Shown here in pieces: positions 5,678 to 34,340 of a stretch of DNA of 60,790 bases; position 1 is the stretch's first letter, and every line of letters begins with the position of its first letter. This stretch comes from Candidatus Wolfebacteria bacterium (GTDB lineage Bacteria; Patescibacteriota; Minisyncoccia; UBA6257; UBA9933), in NCBI GenBank assembly GCA_016188075.1, contig JACPIO010000014.1, positions 1 through 60,790 of the forward strand, read 5' to 3'. The notes under the pieces were generated by a model. The model worked only from the letters and a program-made list of their open reading frames with translations, had not been told where the DNA came from and did not search any database. Made by a program: the position numbers and the translations under genes.

Positions 5678-7768
5678 ATGCCCAAGAAAGCTTTAAAAAC
5701 AGAAAAAAAACCGCCTGTAATCGGCCAAAATCAAAAACCGGAAAATAATCACAACGCCTCGGCTTCCTATGGAGCCAAGGATATTTACGTTCTCGAAGGT
5801 TTGGAGCCGGTCCGGAAACGGCCGGGAATGTATATCGGCTCAACCGGAGTGGATGGCTTACATCATTTGATTTGGGAAGTTTGCGACAACAGCCTCGACG
5901 AGGCAATGGCTGGTTTTGCCAAAAATATCCGGGTGGAGCTTTTGCCGGATAACAAAGTGGCGGTGACTGACGACGGCCGAGGCATTCCGGTTGATATTCA
6001 CTCGCAGACAAAAAAATCAGCCCTGGAAACCGTGATGTGTACTTTGCATGCCGGCGGAAAGTTCGGCGGCGAATCCTATAAGGTCGCGGGCGGTCTTCAC
6101 GGCGTAGGCGTTTCTGTGGTTAACGCGCTTTCCCAGTGGATGCGGGTTGAGGTTTGTCGCGAAGGCGAGCTCTGGTCCCAGGAATACGAGCGCGGTAATC
6201 CGAAATATAAAGTTAAAAAAGAAGGGAAATGCGGCGAGAATGGCACAAGGGTAACTTTTTCTCCGGATCCCAAAGTTTTTTCCAAAATCGAATTTGACCG
6301 TAAAAGAATTTTAGATCATCTTCGCCAGCAGGCTTTCTTAACCAAGGGTGTTAAAATCGAAATTATGGATTCCCGGGACGATCCGCCTTTTTACTACGGT
6401 TTTCAATTCGAGGGCGGGCTTTTATCTTTTATTCAATATCTCGACGAATCCAATGAAGAGATTCAGAAGGAGATTTTTTATACGCATAAAAATTATGAGG
6501 ATATCGATGTTGAAGCAGCTTTTTCTTACAACAAAGAAAGCGATACGCAAGAATTGAGTTTTGCCAACAATATTTATACTCCGGATGGCGGAATGCATTT
6601 AACCGGATTTCGATCAGCCTTGACCAGAACCTTAAACGATTACGCCCGAAAAGAAGGATATCTCAAAAATTCTGATGAAAATCTGATTGGTGACGATGTG
6701 CGGGAAGGGTTAGTCGCGATCGTTTCTGTCAAACTTCGCGAGCCGCAATTTGAAGGTCAAACCAAGGCGCGATTGGGCAATCCGCCGGCTCGAACCGCGG
6801 TTGAGGCGGTGGTGGCCGAAGCTTTAAAAGAATTTTTAGAGAAAAATTCTAATGACGCCCGCGTCATCCTTGACAAGTGTTTGCTTACGCAAAAATCCCG
6901 CAAAGCGGCCCGGGCGGCAAAAGAAAGCGTTTTAAGAAAAGGCGTGCTTGACGGAATGACTTTGCCGGGCAAGCTGGCCGATTGCTCGAGTCGTAATCCA
7001 GAGGAATCGGAATTATTTATCGCGGAAGGCGATTCGGCCGGAGGCTCGGCCAAATCAGCGCGCGACAGGCGATATCAGGCGATTCTTCCTTTGCGCGGAA
7101 AAATTTTAAATGTTGAAAAATCCCGGATTGATAAAATGCTTTTAAATAAAGAAATCCGGTCATTGGTTATGGCCATTGGCACCGCTATTGGCGACGAGTT
7201 CGATATTTCGAAAATCAGATATCATCGGGTGATTCTCGCGACGGACGCCGACGTCGACGGCGCGCATATCCGAACTCTGCTTTTAACGCTGTTTTACCGT
7301 TATTTTATTCAGATAATTGAAAAGGGCCATCTTTACATTGCCCAACCGCCGCTCTATCGTATTCAATCCGGAAAGGAGGCGAGATACGCTTATACAGATT
7401 ATCAAAAGGAATTGATCGTTGCTGATTTTCAAAAAATTAAAGATCAAAAATTATTTTTGCGAAGCAAATCCCCGGAGGGTCAGATTAAAAATACAGATCA
7501 AAAAGTAAAAATTGAGGAAAAAGAAGAAAAGGAAGGAGAGGGCACGAAAGGCATCAGTATCCAGCGTTATAAGGGTTTGGGCGAGATGAATCCGGAACAA
7601 CTTTGGGAGACAACCATGGATCCGGAAAAAAGAATTTTGAAATTGGTAATGATTGAAGACGCTAAAGAGGCGGAACGGTTGTTTGATATTTTGATGGGCG
7701 AAGCAGTCGAGCCGCGAAAGCATTTTATCCAGAGTCAGGCGACAATGGTTAAAAATCTTGACGTTTAA
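5678..7768 (+). CDS. gyrB: DNA gyrase subunit B
   Basis: GLHHLIWEVCDNSLDEA, LHGVG, EGDSAGG, PLRGKILNVE, IATDADVDGAHI, YKGLGEMNPEQLWETTMDP. Confidence 0.97.
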   Translation: MPKKALKTEKKPPVIGQNQKPENNHNASASYGAKDIYVLEGLEPVRKRPGMYIGSTGVDGLHHLIWEVCDNSLDEAMAGFAKNIRVELLPDNKVAVTDDGRGIPVDIHSQTKKSALETVMCTLHAGGKFGGESYKVAGGLHGVGVSVVNALSQWMRVEVCREGELWSQEYERGNPKYKVKKEGKCGENGTRVTFSPDPKVFSKIEFDRKRILDHLRQQAFLTKGVKIEIMDSRDDPPFYYGFQFEGGLLSFIQYLDESNEEIQKEIFYTHKNYEDIDVEAAFSYNKESDTQELSFANNIYTPDGGMHLTGFRSALTRTLNDYARKEGYLKNSDENLIGDDVREGLVAIVSVKLREPQFEGQTKARLGNPPARTAVEAVVAEALKEFLEKNSNDARVILDKCLLTQKSRKAARAAKESVLRKGVLDGMTLPGKLADCSSRNPEESELFIAEGDSAGGSAKSARDRRYQAILPLRGKILNVEKSRIDKMLLNKEIRSLVMAIGTAIGDEFDISKIRYHRVILATDADVDGAHIRTLLLTLFYRYFIQIIEKGHLYIAQPPLYRIQSGKEARYAYTDYQKELIVADFQKIKDQKLFLRSKSPEGQIKNTDQKVKIEEKEEKEGEGTKGISIQRYKGLGEMNPEQLWETTMDPEKRILKLVMIEDAKEAERLFDILMGEAVEPRKHFIQSQATMVKNLDV

Positions 7769-7815
7769 TCGCGATACCAATATACTAATGCATACTAATT
7801 TGTTAGCATCGGCTT

Positions 7816-8001
7816 ATGCTTTTGCGTCTTAAATCTTATCTTCAAGAATCGCGGCAGGAGTTTCGCCGGGTCAATTGGCCGACGCGCCAGGAAACGATTC
7901 GTTTGACGTTGATTGTTATCGGTATTTCTCTTGGCGTAGCTGTTTTTTTGGGCATTTTGGATTTTGTTTTTGGCTATGCTTTAGAGAAATTTTTAGCGTA
8001 A
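7816..8001 (+). CDS. secE: Preprotein translocase subunit SecE
   Basis: 61 aa with EFRRVNWPTRQE plus a single TM helix, directly upstream of nusG. Confidence 0.8.
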   Translation: MLLRLKSYLQESRQEFRRVNWPTRQETIRLTLIVIGISLGVAVFLGILDFVFGYALEKFLA

Positions 8002-31402: not shown

Positions 31403-31846
31403 ATGACCAATGACGACATTAAGAAATTAAGGGAGCTGACTGGCGCCGGCGTCGTGGAGTGCCGGAACGCCCTCAAAGACGCGGGGGGCGACCTCGAAAG
31501 AGCCCGCCAGATTATCCACGAGAGAGGGCAGGTGAGGGCGGAGAAAAGAAAAGACAGGTTAACCGGCGCCGGTATTTTGGAATCTTACATTCATAACGAA
31601 AGAGTGGGTGTGCTTTTAGAACTTCGATGCGAGACGGATTTCGTGGCTCGTTCCGAAGATTTTCGCGAACTCGCTCATAATTTGGCAATGCAGATTGCCG
31701 CGATGAATCCGGCTGATATTGATGAATTGATAAAGCAGGTGTATATTAAGGAGGAAACGCTCGCTGTGGACGGGCTTATTGGGCGAGTAATGGCCAAGAC
31801 TGGAGAAAATATAAGGGTCGAAAGATTTACGAGGTACGAAATTTAA
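31403..31846 (+). CDS. tsf: Elongation factor Ts, short form (147 aa)
   Basis: IKKLRELTGAGVVECRNALKDAGGDLERA UBA-like N-terminus; ETDFVARSEDF. Confidence 0.85.
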   Translation: MTNDDIKKLRELTGAGVVECRNALKDAGGDLERARQIIHERGQVRAEKRKDRLTGAGILESYIHNERVGVLLELRCETDFVARSEDFRELAHNLAMQIAAMNPADIDELIKQVYIKEETLAVDGLIGRVMAKTGENIRVERFTRYEI

Positions 31847-32023
31847 AGGGCTTTCTCTGAAATTTCGAGCCGCAAGGCGAAGAAATTTCAGATAGAAAAC
31901 CTTTACCCTGAGCCTGTCGAAGGGTTACTATACTATAATGTAATTCTTCGACTTCGCTCAGAATGCTCAATGTTGTAGCTAAATTTATTTCGCTCGACAT
32001 TGAGTCTCACTCATAAATTTGGC

Positions 32024-32383
32024 ATGTACAACTTCATTCTTCAATTTTCGTTAATGGTCAGTTTGGGCGTGATGATTTATTTGATGGCGCGAGCCCTGCC
32101 GCGAGTAGGAGATGAAATCGTCCAATCCGAACAAAGCAAGATTGATCAGTGGTTTTCCGCGCTTCCCTTGGACAAAATTGATTCCGCTTTTGGCAATTTT
32201 GCCGAAAAGTTTTTGCGGCGGTTCAGGCTGATTTTGATGAAGTTGGATAATCTGGTGGGCGGCTATCTTCATAGAGTGAAAAAATTTAACGGCAACGGCG
32301 GAGGAAACGGTCCCCAAAAACCAAGTCTTTTTACTAATGGTTCCGCCGGCGGAGAAGAGAAAAGGGAAGAGGATGCTATTTAA
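32024..32383 (+). CDS. Hypothetical membrane protein
   Basis: N-terminal TM helix (FILQFSLMVSLGVMIYLMA). The track ORF starts with TTG at 32000. Confidence 0.4.
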   Translation: MYNFILQFSLMVSLGVMIYLMARALPRVGDEIVQSEQSKIDQWFSALPLDKIDSAFGNFAEKFLRRFRLILMKLDNLVGGYLHRVKKFNGNGGGNGPQKPSLFTNGSAGGEEKREEDAI

Positions 32384-32385
32384 GA

Positions 32386-32469
32386 GGGCAGGTGGCAGAG
32401 CGGTCAATTGCACGAGACTGTAAATCTCGCGCCTTCACGGCTACGGGGGTTCGAATCCCTCCCTGCCCA
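32386..32469 (+). tRNA. tRNA-Tyr (GTA)
   Basis: Cloverleaf with anticodon loop CTGTAAA, a long variable arm, and T-loop GGTTCGAATCC. Confidence 0.9.
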
Positions 32470-32477
32470 CTACATAT

Positions 32478-32515
32478 GCCGGAATAGCTCAACGGCAGAC
32501 TTGCCCGCCATCGCC
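32478..32515 (+). pseudogene. Orphan tRNA 5' fragment (acceptor plus D-arm) fused to a GC-rich repeat
   Basis: GCCGGAATAGCTCAACGGCAGAC is followed by TTGCCCGCCATCGCC. No matching 3' half is seen. Confidence 0.4.
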
Positions 32516-32518
32516 TAA

Positions 32519-32702
32519 GCCCGCGTAGCTCAACTGGCAGAGCAATGCTTTTGCCCGCCTGCCATCGCAATTTGCCAGCGTAGCTCAGTGGTAGAGCAAT
32601 CCCTTTGTAAGGGAAAGGTCGTGGGTTCAAATCCCTCCGCTGGCTCAGGCAAATGGCGGGCAGGTAAAGCAGAGGTTGTCGGTTCGACTCCGACCGTGGG
32701 CT
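32519..32702 (+). tRNA. Interrupted tRNA-Thr-like gene (5' half 32519-32551, 3' half 32663-32702) enclosing a complete tRNA-Thr(TGT)
   Basis: The halves give a 7-bp acceptor stem (GCCCGCG/CGTGGGC), canonical D and T arms, and an anticodon stem ATGCT/AGCAG. The joined loop would read TTGGTAA or TTTGTAA. The insert is bounded by TGCCCGCC(TGCC) / (GGCA)aatGGCGGGCA. Confidence 0.45.
32574..32645 (+). tRNA. tRNA-Thr (TGT)
   Basis: GCCAGCG acceptor, anticodon loop TTTGTAA, T-loop GGTTCAAATCC. Confidence 0.85.
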
Positions 32703-32757
32703 CAGGCTTTGGCAGGCGGGGCAGCGCTTTTTTAAAAAGTTAGGGTAAATTGAGGCT

Positions 32758-32829
32758 GCCGATGTAGCTCAGTGGCAGAGCACGTTCTTGGTAAGAACGG
32801 GGTCGGGAGTTCAATCCTCCCCATCGGCT
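32758..32829 (+). tRNA. tRNA-Thr (GGT)
   Basis: GCCGATG acceptor, anticodon loop TTGGTAA, T-arm GGGAGTTCAATCCTCCC. Confidence 0.9.
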
Positions 32830-32890
32830 CAAATAAGATAGGATGCATCAGAATATTGATAATTGGTACTATTGATGATATGCTGTATAA

Positions 32891-33574
32891 ATGAAATCAA
32901 AGTGGTTCCGATATAAAGACGAGGCGATTCGTTTAAGAAAAAAAGGATTTTCGATTGGTAACGTTGAAAAGTGCTTAGGGATTCCTCGTTCTACCCTGAG
33001 CGGCTGGTTTAAGGACGTAAAGCTTTCGGAAAAGCAGAAACATAAACTATGGCTTAATTGGAAAAATGGTTTAACTAAGGCACGAAAAAAGGCAGTTCTT
33101 TGGCATAATCAACAAAAGCAAAATAGGTTGAATGAGGCAAGGGAAGCATCGTTAGGGGTACTGCGGAGAATAAATCTTAAAGATAAAGATATTTTAGATT
33201 TGGCCTTGGCTATGTTATATTTGGGGGAAGGAGCGAAGAAAAACGCAGAAACAGCTATGGGCAGCTCGGATCCATTGATACTGAGATTTTTTATTGCCGC
33301 TTTACGAAAAATTTATAATTTTGATATCTCAAAGATGCGTTGCGAACTCTATTTAAGAGCAGATCAAAACCCAGACGTAATTAAAAGATTTTGGTCCAGC
33401 GAGTTAAATTTGCCGATAAGAAATTTTAAACAAGTTAGTATTGACAAGAGGACGATTGGGATAAAAACTTACCCTGGATATAAAGGGGTGTGCAACATAC
33501 GCTGTAGCAATGTTGCAATTAAAAGAAAGTTATTATATCTAAGCGAGCTGTTTATTAAAAAATTTATATCTTAA
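32891..33574 (+). CDS. HTH plus LAGLIDADG-like homing-endonuclease-type protein
   Basis: The N-terminal segment GFSIGNVEKCLGIPRSTLSGWFK is HTH-like. LALAMLYLGEGAKK resembles a LAGLIDADG motif. The gene sits between tRNA genes. Confidence 0.45.
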   Translation: MKSKWFRYKDEAIRLRKKGFSIGNVEKCLGIPRSTLSGWFKDVKLSEKQKHKLWLNWKNGLTKARKKAVLWHNQQKQNRLNEAREASLGVLRRINLKDKDILDLALAMLYLGEGAKKNAETAMGSSDPLILRFFIAALRKIYNFDISKMRCELYLRADQNPDVIKRFWSSELNLPIRNFKQVSIDKRTIGIKTYPGYKGVCNIRCSNVAIKRKLLYLSELFIKKFIS

Positions 33575-33576
33575 CG

Positions 33577-33651
33577 GGGTGATTAGCTCAGTGGCAGAGC
33601 GCTTCCTCGACACGGAAGAGGTCACTGGTTCAAATCCAGTATCACCCACCA
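33577..33651 (+). tRNA. tRNA-Val (GAC)
   Basis: GGGTGAT acceptor, anticodon stem CTTCC/GGAAG with GAC, encoded CCA. Confidence 0.85.
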
Positions 33652-33697
33652 GATAGGAAATTGCAAATTAGGATATTTTTTATTAGTATTTAATTTT

Positions 33698-33865
33698 ATG
33701 CCCAAATCTAAACTTTCCGAAAATTTAATAAGACTGCGTTGCTCCGTTTGTAAACGTTATAATTATTACACGCGCAAGAAAAAAACCTTGGAGCGGAAGC
33801 TTGAATTTAAAAAATATTGCCGCTGGTGCCGCAAACATACGATTCATAAAGAAGCAAAGAAATAA
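33698..33865 (+). CDS. rpmG: 50S ribosomal protein L33
   Basis: 55 aa, not in the track: ...RLRCSVCKRYNYYTRKKK...LEFKKYCRWCRKHTIHKEAKK (two CxxC pairs). Confidence 0.85.
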   Translation: MPKSKLSENLIRLRCSVCKRYNYYTRKKKTLERKLEFKKYCRWCRKHTIHKEAKK

Positions 33866-33877
33866 ATTTTTAGAATG

Positions 33878-33948
33878 GGGTCCATAGTTCAATGGCAGAA
33901 CGACGGTCTCCAAAACCGTTAATGGGGGTTCGACTCCCTCTGGACCCG
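33878..33948 (+). tRNA. tRNA-Trp (CCA)
   Basis: GGGTCCA acceptor, anticodon loop CTCCAAA, T-loop GGTTCGACTCC. Confidence 0.9.
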
Positions 33949-33950
33949 CA

Positions 33951-34340
33951 ATGGACTATCGCGGCGTCATAATTGAAGAAAGTTTGGAGAATGCCGAAGC
34001 GCTAAAAAAAGTGAAACTCCTCTGGACTAACGTCGAAGGCGTCACGGATTCTCATGATACTCCTTGGCTTAAAAAATGGACGCTCCATCATGTTTTAGTT
34101 CCGGAAGAAGAAGCGGAAGCAGCGGCAAAAATTTTAAGCGAGTCGCTGGATAAAGAGCGGCCGTGGTACGCGGATTTTAAAAATGAATCCACGCATTTCG
34201 TAGTTTTTCGGGACAAGGTTTTTAAAATCAATCGCGAAAGCAAGGAAGAATATAAAGAAGCGGTGAGATATGGATTGTCTCTGGGTATTCCAGCGCATCA
34301 GCTGGATTTTTCCCCTGATATTCGGGATTGGAAAAGATAG
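33951..34340 (+). CDS. Hypothetical protein (129 aa)
   Basis: Clean ORF with protein-like composition. No family recognised. Confidence 0.5.
   Translation: MDYRGVIIEESLENAEALKKVKLLWTNVEGVTDSHDTPWLKKWTLHHVLVPEEEAEAAAKILSESLDKERPWYADFKNESTHFVVFRDKVFKINRESKEEYKEAVRYGLSLGIPAHQLDFSPDIRDWKR

Follow-up and report, generated by a model that had tools for sequence, protein, structure and literature searches.

Interrupted tRNA genes of archaea contain bulge-helix-bulge introns or are encoded as split and tri-split tRNAs, as in Nanoarchaeum and Caldivirga. The bulge-helix-bulge motif consists of two bulges of 3 nt with a helix of 4 bp between them. Group I introns have a catalytic core recognisable by an Rfam model and a length of about 200 nt or more. 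Bacterial group I introns, for instance that of tRNA-Leu(UAA), lie in the anticodon loop and are not accompanied by a target duplication (Williams 2020, bioRxiv 10.1101/2020.01.27.920355). In tRNA-dependent lysogeny of actinobacteriophages, the incoming element breaks an essential tRNA gene of the host and does not rebuild it (Guerrero-Bustamante and Hatfull 2024, PMC10865867). The element is a whole phage that uses a tyrosine integrase and a common core of ~10 bp and brings a replacement tRNA of its own (PMC10865867). Integrases also leave tRNA fragments at the borders of genomic islands, described in PMC9897764 (and in Williams 2002, cited there) as partial tRNA genes beside a complete one; such scars are direct repeats of one tRNA end across kilobases of island (PMC9897764). 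Finally, Dada DNA transposons are presented in PMC8869645 as eukaryotic, transposase-encoding elements that occupy fixed positions in tRNA and snRNA genes, where the multicopy nature of the targets makes disruption harmless.

The locus described here lies at 32478-32757 of the window, i.e. the whole stretch of 60,790 nt that was analysed, and contains tRNA-Thr(UGU) genes nested in three levels. An older gene, B, is interrupted at nt 35|36 by the innermost gene T with its arms, and a still older one, A, is interrupted at nt 23|24 by B with a second pair of arms. The parts of the nest and the evidence for each are as follows.

32478-32499, + strand: level A (oldest), 5' piece, nt 1-23, GCCGGAA TA GCTC AACGGCA GA (sequence)
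32500-32518, + strand: outer cassette, 5' arm (CTTGCCCGCC, 32500-32509) and spacer ATCGCCTAA (sequence comparison; fold)
32519-32553, + strand: level B, 5' piece of tRNA-Thr(UGU), nt 1-35, last base G35 of the anticodon (sequence; ARAGORN on the joined gene)
32554-32573, + strand: inner cassette, 5' arm (CCCGCCTGCC, 32554-32563) and spacer ATCGCAATTT (inverted repeats; arm motif count)
32574-32646, + strand: level T, innermost tRNA-Thr(UGU), intact (ARAGORN; Rfam RF00005, 69.5 bits, E = 1.6e-14)
32647-32664, + strand: inner cassette, spacer and 3' arm (GGCGGGCAGG, 32655-32664) (inverted repeats; arm motif count)
32665-32702, + strand: level B, 3' piece, nt 36-73 from T36 (sequence)
32703-32720, + strand: outer cassette, spacer and 3' arm (GGCAGGCGGG, 32711-32720) (inverted repeats; arm motif count)
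32721-32757, + strand: level A, decayed 3' piece (alignment with intact 3' pieces, e.g. 'GGCAGGCGGG|GCAAGCGCTTCGTAAGCGTTAGG...' of L296)

An initial annotation of this DNA had described a complete tRNA-Thr(UGU) that divides another tRNA gene at its anticodon loop, and the features it noted are present at coordinates that are exact or within 2 nt. The inner gene is called as such by ARAGORN and Rfam, and the reported interruption of 111 nt is exact (32554-32664) and free of open reading frames. T does not encode CCA. It is the only tRNA that ARAGORN and Rfam call within 32478-32757, and it is presumed to be the sole functional copy in the nest. The neighbourhood comprises the genes for EF-Ts, tRNA-Tyr, tRNA-Thr(UGU), tRNA-Thr(GGU) and tRNA-Trp.

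Excision of the insert from B restores a canonical tRNA-Thr(UGU) with neither an extra nor a missing base. ARAGORN, which had been proposed as a check, accepts the joined gene (32519-32553 + 32665-32702) as a 74-nt tRNA-Thr(tgt) with the loop TTTGTAA, all arms and a standard T loop. The 3' piece consists of TAA, AGCAG, the variable loop, the T arm GTCGG-TTCGACT-CCGAC, the acceptor strand CGTGGGC and the discriminator T. The acceptor stem had been counted as 7/7 paired; it is built of six Watson-Crick pairs and one G-U pair, and the anticodon stem pairs at 4/5 positions. Both halves had been recognised with misplaced inner ends: the 5' half does not stop at 32551 but at G35 (32553), and the 3' half starts not at 32663 but at T36 (32665). 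As the break thus falls at G35|T36, the joined anticodon is UGU and not GGU, and of the two loops considered originally, TTTGTAA and TTGGTAA, the former holds. Relatives with CGU, CAU and UCU anticodons are likewise interrupted at 35|36. Since the anticodon of B is identical to that of T, no decoding capacity is gained from B. An exact search of JGI metagenome contigs with the 5' half of B returned no match.

The 5' piece of A, initially taken for an orphan fragment, is not randomly truncated: its last base is exactly A23, on the 3' side of the D stem, and this point is the second recurrent insertion site. The fragment is real but no orphan, as its decayed partner follows at 32721-32757. This partner begins with GCA (nt 24-26); the anticodon arm that follows survives as a remnant, GCGCT TTTTTAA AAAGT, the T arm is truncated, and the acceptor strand is mutated (TTGAGGC for TTCCGGC). 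Joined A is not recognised as a tRNA. The run of T noticed earlier corresponds to the remnant anticodon loop of A. The 5' arm and spacer of the outer cassette are near-identical to the arm and spacer CCTGCCCGCCATCGCCTAA found in L181, L205, L323, L351 and L383, and the 5' arm of the inner cassette also occurs in L086, L098, L111, L134, L159, L183 and L219. The trailer after T, CAGGCAAATGG, parallels the outer-cassette trailer after B, CAGGCTTTGG.

GC-rich complementary sequences around the insert had been noted from the start, and several pairings bear this out. At the window locus, TGCCCGCC and GGCGGGCA form an 8/8 inverted repeat, and further complementary cross pairs link 32499-32511 with 32653-32665 (12/13) and 32554-32564 with 32710-32720 (11/11). 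The further copies of the repeat are likewise there: the degenerate motif CCYGCCYGCC occurs three times in the 60.8-kb window, every time at the nest locus, against a shuffle expectation of 0.22, and three copies were reached in 0/100 shuffles. The cognate arms of the inner cassette can form a duplex of 13 pairs (−20.6 kcal/mol), and in the minimum-free-energy fold the outer 5' arm is paired with 32711-32720. The predicted fold of 32478-32757 is fully nested, with −119.2 kcal/mol (z = −4.25), and none of 200 shuffles was equally stable.

Comparable arms are found at nests elsewhere. They are composed of a conserved terminal part of 10 nt (CCYGCCYGCC / GGCRGGCRGG) and an inner helix of 5-6 bp that covaries, for instance TCGCC/GGCGA, ATGCC/GGCAT, GTGCC/GGCAC and AGCCA/TGGCT. 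The median pairing energy is −16.8 kcal/mol for cognate and −10.3 kcal/mol for non-cognate arms. Flank pairing of −25 kcal/mol or below was observed 81 times versus 16 with shuffled partners, a descriptive comparison only, as arm families and acceptor strands cross-pair between loci and thereby inflate the control. The arm families CCYGCCYGCC, CCCCGTTAGA, CCCCGCACC and CCCCCACACC are associated with various tRNA cargos in distant CPR classes. Cassette size is uniform, the 3' arm beginning 86-95 nt beyond its 5' counterpart for most of the 64 cassettes measured.

The tRNA-in-tRNA architecture occurs in well over 100 Patescibacteria genomes and involves Thr, Met, Arg, Phe, Ala, Lys and Val genes. 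The nests recur at two fixed positions, the insertion sites elsewhere being the same 23|24 and 35|36, and a few arm families are used repeatedly. A scan for a 5' tRNA piece followed by a close tRNA start yielded 107 stretches, mainly from Patescibacteria, including nests of Thr(UGU, CGU, GGU), Met, Arg(UCU, UCG, CCU) and Phe; its non-CPR matches (Solirubrobacter, Ktedonobacter and others) are of the integrase-scar type and look different. The D-stem junction of level A, '...GG(T/C)AGA|C(C/T)TGCCCGCC', recurs in 91 stretches from species-representative genomes; essentially all are Patescibacteria, and the single-cell genome L291 is one of them. This class was exposed in the low-GC subset of a scan for a GCC arm plus a tRNA start, which was swamped by chance matches in high-GC genomes. 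Brute-force splicing followed by ARAGORN proved too permissive, and explicit tests of the acceptor and T arm were used instead. Nests are also present in large assemblies, L103 lying on a complete chromosome and L083 on a contig of 857 kb. The deepest nests reach five or six levels: L087 has five 5' pieces followed by 3' pieces in reverse order, and additional levels are present in L081 and L109, too. In several genomes, cassettes occupy more than one tRNA gene, as with L098 and L111, which share a contig, and L083 and L372, which share another. Most tRNA genes of nest-bearing genomes are free of such arms. In the same neighbourhood, the relatives L002, L009, L012, L016 and L089 have a Thr(UGU) relic that is interrupted at 35|36 by another Thr(UGU) gene, with arm families different from those of the window locus, and in L001 the outer-type gene is uninterrupted. 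In the literature searched, neither tRNA-in-tRNA nests nor tRNA introns of Patescibacteria were described, and a paper on rRNA insertions in CPR does not mention tRNA.

Inner and outer genes match in anticodon, and outer copies decay. Of the 45 distinct D-site cassettes, 24 have an outer gene that forms a normal tRNA when joined, and in 23 of these 24 its anticodon equals that of the inner gene. A canonical T loop is retained by 28/45 outer versus 41/45 inner genes of this set. At the anticodon site, the outer gene is intact in 15 of 49 nests, and at least 4/5 anticodon-stem pairs are kept in 25/49. In related as well as unrelated Patescibacteria, decay takes the form of deletion of the anticodon or T arm, mutation of U55 and insertion of hairpins, and further hairpin insertions accumulate in dead outer copies. 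As about half of the outer copies are broken, they are best regarded as relics and not as split tRNAs that are rejoined.

Near-identical cassettes are found in diverged resident genes. The L291 cassette is 95% identical to those of L296 and L389, with identical arms and spacers, whereas the outer genes of these three loci share just 72-75% identity and have fully compensated acceptor stems. Similarly, L339 and L386 are 92% identical in the cassette versus 75% in the outer gene. Such a pattern favours horizontal spread, and we infer mobility or horizontal transfer of the cassette DNA. Among the copies found, none was seen outside tRNA genes or their relics. Neither a transposase, an integrase or another candidate enzyme linked to the cassettes nor an autonomous partner element was found, and the flanks of the window nest contain no integrase. 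Target-site duplications are absent at B and at the outer genes of L202, L205, L296 and L372. In this respect the cassettes are unlike MITEs, with which they share terminal inverted repeats.

In our view, the locus probably records two successive replacements of a tRNA-Thr(UGU) gene by a hairpin-armed tRNA cassette of ~110 nt, with T as the only working copy. In a first step, a ~110-nt cassette composed of a GC-rich arm, a complete tRNA-Thr(UGU) and a complementary arm would have entered A at 23|24, cleanly and with no visible target duplication or deletion. A would have been killed by this insertion and B supplied in its place. A second cassette of the same family may then have entered B at 35|36, killing B and supplying T, which would leave B as a young relic, intact if joined, and A as an old, decayed one. 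In the transcript, the arms and relic acceptor strands would close a nested helix, from which T is presumably released by RNase P and RNase Z before CCA addition. The strict anticodon match between inner and outer genes would follow if a hit on an essential single-copy tRNA is tolerated only when the cargo has the same anticodon. About half of the outer copies, B included, form perfect cloverleaves when joined, which speaks against replacement. So do the absence of an enzyme linked to the cassettes, the absence of target-site duplications, the lack of cassettes outside tRNA relics or in the viral contigs scanned, and the arms that remain paired beside a deleted outer gene. Recent insertion would account for the intact outer copies; a splicing pathway would explain them equally well.

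More tentatively, and with slightly less than even confidence, we extend this reading to Patescibacteria in general, which may harbour undescribed gene-less, hairpin-armed tRNA cassettes that kill and replace the same-anticodon gene at 23|24 or 35|36, spread horizontally and nest. Having killed and replaced the resident gene, a cassette would thereby become indispensable, and repeated invasions could stack up into Russian-doll nests with as many as five or six levels. A putative insertion enzyme might recognise the conserved ends of the arms (10 nt), one arm showing a 4-nt asymmetry (CRRG/CYYG).

The arms might instead belong to a vertically inherited processing scaffold. Together with the outer strands they would aid folding of the inner pre-tRNA, its processing by RNase P/Z or its stability; their diversity would be due to compensatory evolution, and they would trace to one or few ancient events and not to mobility. 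This is consistent with the covariation of the inner arm helix and with a nested fold far more stable than shuffles. It also fits the arms of L009 (13 bp) and L085 (12 bp), which have kept perfect pairing although deletion of the outer gene extends as far as the arms. Arms kept paired beside a deleted outer gene hint at a function at the RNA level or as a DNA hairpin, for which simple decay of a scar is insufficient, and arms probably do matter for folding or processing. Nevertheless, inheritance of a scaffold is an unlikely origin of the nests. The same arm families accompany different cargos in distant CPR classes, whereas close relatives with the same neighbourhood have other arm families at the same site. 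Moreover, a 95%-identical cassette resides in resident genes that diverged while functional, multi-level nests need repeated events, and arms are missing from most tRNA genes in nest-bearing genomes.

Alternatively, each cassette could be the minimal remnant of a larger phage or plasmid that integrated into a tRNA gene without restoring it, brought its own tRNA of the same type and later lost by deletion all but this tRNA and the arms, which would be its recombination sites. The logic would be that of tRNA-dependent lysogeny with same-isotype complementation (PMC10865867), and the arms are inverted repeats like the core sites of recombinases. Indeed, as in that system, a tRNA gene is disrupted and the invader brings a replacement of its own (PMC10865867). 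The cassettes differ from it in being gene-less and ~110 nt long, in their hairpin arms and the absence of a core duplication, in the sites 23|24 and 35|36, in stacked nests and in their Patescibacteria hosts. A remnant is very improbable, as dozens of independent cassettes have one compact size, intermediates with genes between the arms were not seen, and neither a common-core duplication at the junctions nor an integrase nearby is present. In addition, IMG/VR viral contigs scanned for an arm plus a tRNA start were without cassettes, all 13 matches being chance matches within coding sequence. The scar of an integrase att site has the wrong topology: in the nest, 5' and 3' pieces bracket a 111-nt insert in nested order, and a direct repeat at the junctions and an integrase in the flanks are absent. 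With Dada elements (PMC8869645) the cassettes would share the aim of a mobile element at a specific position in small RNA genes. Dada targets are multicopy; those of the cassettes are single-copy, and harm would be avoided by the replacement carried along.

As one of two options, the initial annotation put forward a nested or split tRNA that is still functional. The inner tRNA would be removed by RNase P and RNase Z, and the halves of B would be ligated, e.g. by an RtcB-type enzyme, or work as two pieces, so that two tRNA-Thr result. Such a gene would explain why joined B is a canonical tRNA-Thr(UGU), why about half of the outer genes elsewhere are intact (24/45; 15/49) and why the arms are complementary with a covarying inner part. 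We also count in its favour that the insertions lie in the D arm and anticodon loop, which we take to be tRNA parts hosting archaeal introns and split sites. As in archaeal interrupted tRNA genes, the break lies in the anticodon loop or D arm and is adjoined by GC-rich complementary sequences. The nests differ in their bacterial host, in pieces that are contiguous and not separate transcription units, in an intervening sequence that is a complete tRNA with the same anticodon and in the decay of the interrupted copies. The bulge-helix-bulge motif is found at neither junction. At 35|36 exon and arm helix are continuous, and only TAA (nt 36-38), on the 3' side, is left unpaired, a second bulge being absent; at 23|24 the arms abut the D stem. 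Joining of halves in the manner of Nanoarchaeum, as originally suggested, is further disfavoured by the shared anticodon of B and T, which leaves no selective need for B, and by the decay of outer copies. A is visibly broken, as are about half of the outer copies elsewhere, and the inner gene is intact throughout; dead outer copies gain more hairpin insertions. Bacteria are not known to possess a tRNA splicing endonuclease, which also counts against a split tRNA. Among the ten neighbouring ORFs scanned, none has a tRNA splicing endonuclease or RNA ligase domain. We consider it highly improbable that B functions as an interrupted or split tRNA. The comparison of related genomes, proposed in the annotation as a check, revealed outer copies at every stage of decay in related and unrelated Patescibacteria. 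Such decay is what the annotation had named as refuting its first option, and it is close to the second option offered there, a disrupted pseudogene.

A group I intron shares with the insert the anticodon-loop site and the lack of a target duplication. The insert is only 111 nt long, has a G and not a U before the 5' junction and carries a tRNA as cargo. A ribozyme core is absent: an Rfam scan of 31800-34200 at E <= 10 returned only tRNA matches and noise.

Mis-joining of similar tRNA genes or strains during assembly is a negligible explanation: although tRNA clusters are rich in repeats and two short-read contigs carrying a neighbouring ORF, found via flanking proteins, break inside tRNA-Thr(GGU), one architecture with precise junctions recurs across well over 100 genomes produced by many studies and assemblers, among them the single-cell genome L291, the complete chromosome of L103 and the 857-kb contig of L083, and B and T differ by ~23% and are therefore not collapsed repeats.

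If replacement by cassettes is correct, essential single-copy tRNA genes in the smallest bacterial genomes have been overwritten repeatedly by incoming copies, and every event has left a layered, datable record in the DNA. It would constitute a new selfish strategy, in which a gene-less element of ~110 nt disrupts and replaces an essential RNA gene, and a route for the horizontal exchange of tRNA genes. Bacterial examples of tRNA genes with insertions in the D arm and the anticodon loop would also bear on the debate over the origin of archaeal introns and split tRNAs and the role of mobile elements in gene disruption. If the outer genes were spliced after all, the implication would be bigger still, namely the first protein-dependent tRNA splicing in bacteria, distinct from group I introns. 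For annotation, the nests pose a practical problem, because tRNA finders report the innermost gene alone, and relics and arms can break assemblies.

Two further candidates were rejected. A neighbouring ORF of 227 aa was considered as a LAGLIDADG homing endonuclease; its structure model, a confident one with pLDDT 93, matched no PDB fold at E <= 0.001, and the strand order is presumably unlike that of LAGLIDADG proteins. As a driver of insertion it is rejected as well, homologues lying within 8 kb in just 3 of 107 nest-bearing loci. The end of the tRNA-Tyr gene in the window, CCTGCCC-A, resembles CCTGCCCGCC, which raised the idea that the arms are relic acceptor strands of tRNA-Tyr. Against this origin stand the presence of the same arms in unrelated contexts and with other cargos and pairing that extends over more than 7 bp.

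The tRNA-Thr(UGU) locus of the window, which comes from a Parcubacteria-type genome of the Patescibacteria, is a nest of three levels rather than two. It belongs to a group of loci with nested anatomy and two fixed insertion sites, in which the anticodons of inner and outer copies match, the outer copies decay and cassettes are shared by diverged hosts. Genes for SMC, TrmD, ribosomal protein S2 and a short EF-Ts lie near the nest, the EF-Ts sharing no more than 67% identity with its counterparts in Patescibacteria assemblies. The tRNAs called by ARAGORN were recovered by a permissive Rfam scan, which returned neither a group I intron nor any further credible match.

Features of the nest and its surroundings (window coordinates; T, B and A are the innermost, middle and outermost copies)
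32386-32470: tRNA-Tyr (ARAGORN)
32478-32499: 5′ piece of A, nt 1-23, decayed level
32500-32518: 5′ arm of the second pair, around B and its contents, CTTGCCCGCC-ATCGCCTAA
32519-32553: 5′ piece of B, nt 1-35, intact once joined
5′ flank of T: CCCGCCTGCC-ATCGCAATTT
32574-32646: T, whole tRNA-Thr(UGU) gene, intact (ARAGORN)
3′ flank of T: CAGGCAAAT-GGCGGGCAGG
32665-32702: 3′ piece of B, nt 36-73
32703-32720: 3′ arm of the second pair, CAGGCTTTG-GCAGGCGGG
32721-32757: 3′ piece of A
32758-32830: tRNA-Thr(GGU) (ARAGORN)
32891-33574, + strand: 227-aa ORF between tRNA-Thr(GGU) and tRNA-Val(GAC)

All elements listed in the initial annotation were found in the sequence. It had described a two-level nest beside an orphan tRNA fragment; the fragment (32478-32499) is real, and it is the 5′ piece of the third level, terminating exactly at A23 in the D stem. 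Directly 3′ of the outer 3′ arm follows GCA (nt 24-26) and then an anticodon arm that is decayed yet recognisable, a T arm cut short and an acceptor strand with mutations. Joined A gave no tRNA call; it is a member of the D-site class, interrupted between nt 23 and 24. The joined B pieces form a 74-nt tRNA-Thr(tgt) (ARAGORN) with six Watson-Crick pairs and one G-U in the acceptor stem, four of five anticodon-stem pairs and a canonical T loop. A GGU join of B is also formally possible, UGU being the consistent reading because CGU, CAU and UCU relatives all stop after nt 35 and restart at T36. The sequence CCYGCCYGCC occurs three times in 60.8 kb (chance expectation 0.22), each time in the nest locus and within 170 nt of the others. 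Folding of 32478-32740 yielded a single fully nested structure of −119.2 kcal/mol (z = −4.25), a stability reached by 0 of 200 shuffles. The outer 3′ arm and what remains of A's anticodon loop coincide in part with a weak terminator-like hairpin and T run at 32706-32735 (GCTTTGGCAGGCGGGGC, then AGCGCTTTTT), which is not above chance in that region (one found, 0.8 expected). The tRNA genes of the cluster (ends at 32470, 32646, 32702 and 32830) do not encode CCA. T, the 3′ piece of B and Thr(GGU) are followed by T-CA (discriminator T), continuing as ...CAGGC after the first two (common trailer CAGGC(A/T)(A/T)(A/T)), and tRNA-Tyr by A-CTA.

Cognate arms form a median of 11 pairs with −16.8 kcal/mol, compared to −10.3 for non-cognate combinations. 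The terminal 10 nt of the CCYGCCYGCC family are conserved in sequence and, paired in register, contain a fixed C-A mismatch and a T-G pair, followed by 5-6 bp that covary (TCGCC/GGCGA, ATGCC/GGCAT, GTGCC/GGCAC, AGCCA/TGGCT). By inspection, one arm has four extra terminal nucleotides, CAGG, CAAG or CGAG at a 3′ end or the complements CCTG, CTTG or CTCG at a 5′ end. Thus, the arm pair is polar and occurs in either orientation relative to the cargo. The insertions are clean, as removal of the insert leaves a canonical tRNA with no base duplicated or missing. Dead outer copies (L106, L222, L278, L304, L345 and others; L numbers denote stretches from other genomes) contain, at the same positions, arm hairpins without cargo, which may be cargo-deleted cassettes. 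Small arm-like hairpins without cargo were also seen in relic tRNA pieces of L188 (1-260), L095, L105, L106, L117, L166, L222, L278, L304, L345 and L347. They lie in the D loop, at 35/36 of the anticodon loop or in the T arm, for instance CACCGCACC...GGTACGGGGCAGG, TCCGCC-AAA-GGCGGA, TCCCGAC...GTCGGGA and CCTGCC-TACC-GGCAGGCAGG.

Dozens of related assemblies share the gene order EF-Ts, tRNA-Tyr, Thr(UGU), Thr(GGU), (Val), Trp. In five of them (L002, L009, L012, L016 and the Wolfebacteria assembly L089), an intact Thr(UGU) lies between tRNA pieces and complementary arms at site 35/36, with arms that differ from those of the window (CCCCGTTAGATAT / ATATCTAACGGGG; TCCCCCACCCATT / AATGGGTGGGGGA; TCCCTCA / TGAGGGA; CCGTATACAA / TTGTTGTACGG). 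L001 has a single uninterrupted Thr(UGU) gene that matches the outer pieces of L002 and L012 and serves as an 'empty site'. In the outer gene of L012 the anticodon arm is gone, in that of L009 half of the D arm and the T arm; in both, the complementary arms are still perfectly paired. Upstream of tRNA-Thr(GGU), the spacers of L010, L012, L014 and L019 contain tandem repeats of about 76 nt. In each unit, a small hairpin (GGGCGAAGCCC) comes after the initial 23 nt of tRNA-Thr(GGU) (GCCGATGTAGCTCAGCGGCAGAG), and the rest is decayed. The intact gene has up to three or more such units in front of it, which may represent serial D-site events without their 3′ pieces. L044 (5127-5290) has two overlapping tRNA-Tyr (ARAGORN), then Thr(UGU) with 17-bp AT-rich arms (GATGTTCTAAAAATTTT / AAAATTTTAGAACATC); a 3′ piece is present, a 5′ piece is not obvious, and the locus may be a nest with an overwritten 5′ side.

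[quoted passage not shown] Taxon labels are unreliable in many 'TPA_asm' record titles. The nests involve Thr(UGU), Thr(CGU), Thr(GGU), Met(CAU), Arg(UCU, UCG, CCU) and Phe(GAA). All break after nt 35 and restart at nt 36 except those of Phe, which break earlier within the anticodon loop. Matches outside the CPR are of another kind, 5′ fragments spanning the whole anticodon loop, without arms or 3′ piece, and are ordinary integrase scars. A second scan revealed the 23/24 site (...GGTAGA/CCTGCCCGCC ... GGCAGGCGGG/GCA..., slashes marking the junctions). A pattern specific for this site gave 91 matches, essentially all in Patescibacteria and one in a single-cell genome, with Thr (three anticodons), Ala (three), Lys (two), Val and Phe cargos. 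As the patterns demand particular D-arm and arm sequences, all these counts are lower bounds and no unbiased census. In some genomes, two different tRNA genes contain cassettes. In L087, five successive 5′ pieces, each ending in TTTTG, precede the intact gene, and the 3′ pieces follow in reversed order. This tRNA-Thr(UGU) nest (reverse strand, ~7440-7940) has five to six levels; the 3′ piece of one level and one arm partner are absent. The 5′ half of its innermost gene is identical (34/34) to the 5′ piece two levels further out and the 3′ parts differ, suggesting that levels have exchanged sequence by gene conversion or that two competing types of cassette have alternated.

Several observations speak for transfer of cassettes between lineages. 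Arm families cross tRNA types and host classes. CCYGCCYGCC arms flank Thr, Met, Arg, Ala, Lys and Val cargos in Microgenomates, Parcubacteria, Kerfeld-, Berkel- and Doudnabacteria, and the CCCCGTTAGA family was found with Thr(UGU), Thr(CGU) and Met. Close relatives differ in arm family at one and the same site of a shared gene neighbourhood. L291 has a cassette 95% identical to those of L296 and L389, arms and spacers included, whereas the resident genes they interrupt share only 72-75%. The acceptor stems of these residents differ by fully compensated changes (GCCAGTA/TACTGGC vs GCCGAGG/CCTCGGC); the residents therefore diverged while functional, before insertion. Identity between inner and outer copies within a genome (median ~76%, range 61-92%) is not above that between genomes, which argues against simple in-place duplication. 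A purely vertical processing scaffold accounts for the maintenance of the arms, but neither for how arm families are distributed nor for the L291/L296 case, and we consider it unlikely. There is a substantial chance that the nests reveal a new class of mobile element.

Two known kinds are related to the nests, interrupted tRNA genes and elements that disrupt and replace a tRNA. In function, tRNA-dependent lysogeny (PMC10865867) comes closest, and a stripped-down integrative element of that type would follow the same logic. Yet the uniform 110-nt size and the junctions do not match, and no intermediate was found, making this origin quite improbable. In structure, the nests most resemble interrupted or split tRNA genes of archaea and group I introns in bacterial tRNA genes; the defining features of these that were tested for were not found. 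Searches of the open-access and bioRxiv literature gave no description of nested tRNA genes or tRNA introns in Patescibacteria, an earlier account elsewhere being possible; a detailed paper on CPR rRNA gene insertions does not mention tRNA.

The initial annotation had proposed a nested or split tRNA or a recently disrupted pseudogene, taking decay of the halves in related genomes as a sign of a dead gene; such decay is widespread. Among 45 distinct single-level D-site cassettes, the joined outer gene is a tRNA of normal length in 24, of which 23 share the inner anticodon, and the T loop keeps the canonical form G-TTCRANN-C in 28 outer but 41 inner copies. In 49 anticodon-site nests, picked for a recognisable 3′ piece, only 25 outer copies retain at least four of five anticodon-stem pairs and only 34 a canonical T loop. 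Further outer copies have lost whole arms or gained additional small hairpins. Such a range of damage is what pseudogenes of various ages are expected to show, with B at the young and A at the old end. Changes of U55 to C or G recur in the 49 anticodon-site nests and, across outer copies, come up too often for random decay; shared ancestry of one tRNA lineage or selection disabling the relic T loop may be responsible. Relics of L093, L101, L102, L131, L139, L159, L181, L282 and L291 carry the change, as C (TCCGAAT, TCCGATT, TCCGACT, TCCAAAT) or G (TGCAATT). A spliced or two-piece functional tRNA might still be imagined for young, intact outer copies such as B, but it comes without motif, known enzyme or selective reason and is contradicted by the decay series, and we hold it to be quite improbable. 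An assembly artefact is very unlikely, to the point of being negligible, as anticodon-site nests occur on L103, a complete chromosome, and on L083, a contig of 857 kb.

For a mobile cassette, we envisage entry into a resident tRNA gene with the same anticodon. Insertion would be viable only because the cargo stands in for the gene destroyed. The next invasion would strike the innermost, currently intact copy, since older copies have lost an undisrupted target site. In the transcript, the arms would close a helix around the cargo, whose maturation would then proceed by RNase P, RNase Z and addition of CCA. A HUH-type single-strand transposase, a site-specific recombinase or an RNA-mediated route would each be compatible with clean insertion without target duplication, with the polar hairpin end and with structure-like targeting. 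After a few founding events, spread through homologous recombination via the conserved tRNA exons is possible.

At its N-terminus, the 227-aa ORF downstream of the nest weakly matches a helix-turn-helix; it also contains an invariant LYxGEGxK motif. Its family comprises more than 1,400 'hypothetical' proteins (56-77% identity for the 120 best matches) in assemblies labelled Microgenomates, Azambacteria, Paceibacterota and others. The AlphaFold model is confident (pLDDT 93) and had no PDB fold match at E ≤ 0.001. Homologues lie within or adjoining tRNA clusters in L028, L043, L044, L047, L051 and L170 (twice), and are present also in L046, L131 and L148; the ORF looks like a mobile gene preferring tRNA clusters. 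Two short-read Logan contigs (L307, L308) carry the identical ORF. Both begin 90 nt upstream of it, within tRNA-Thr(GGU); the tRNA nest is evidently a break point for assemblies of this population.
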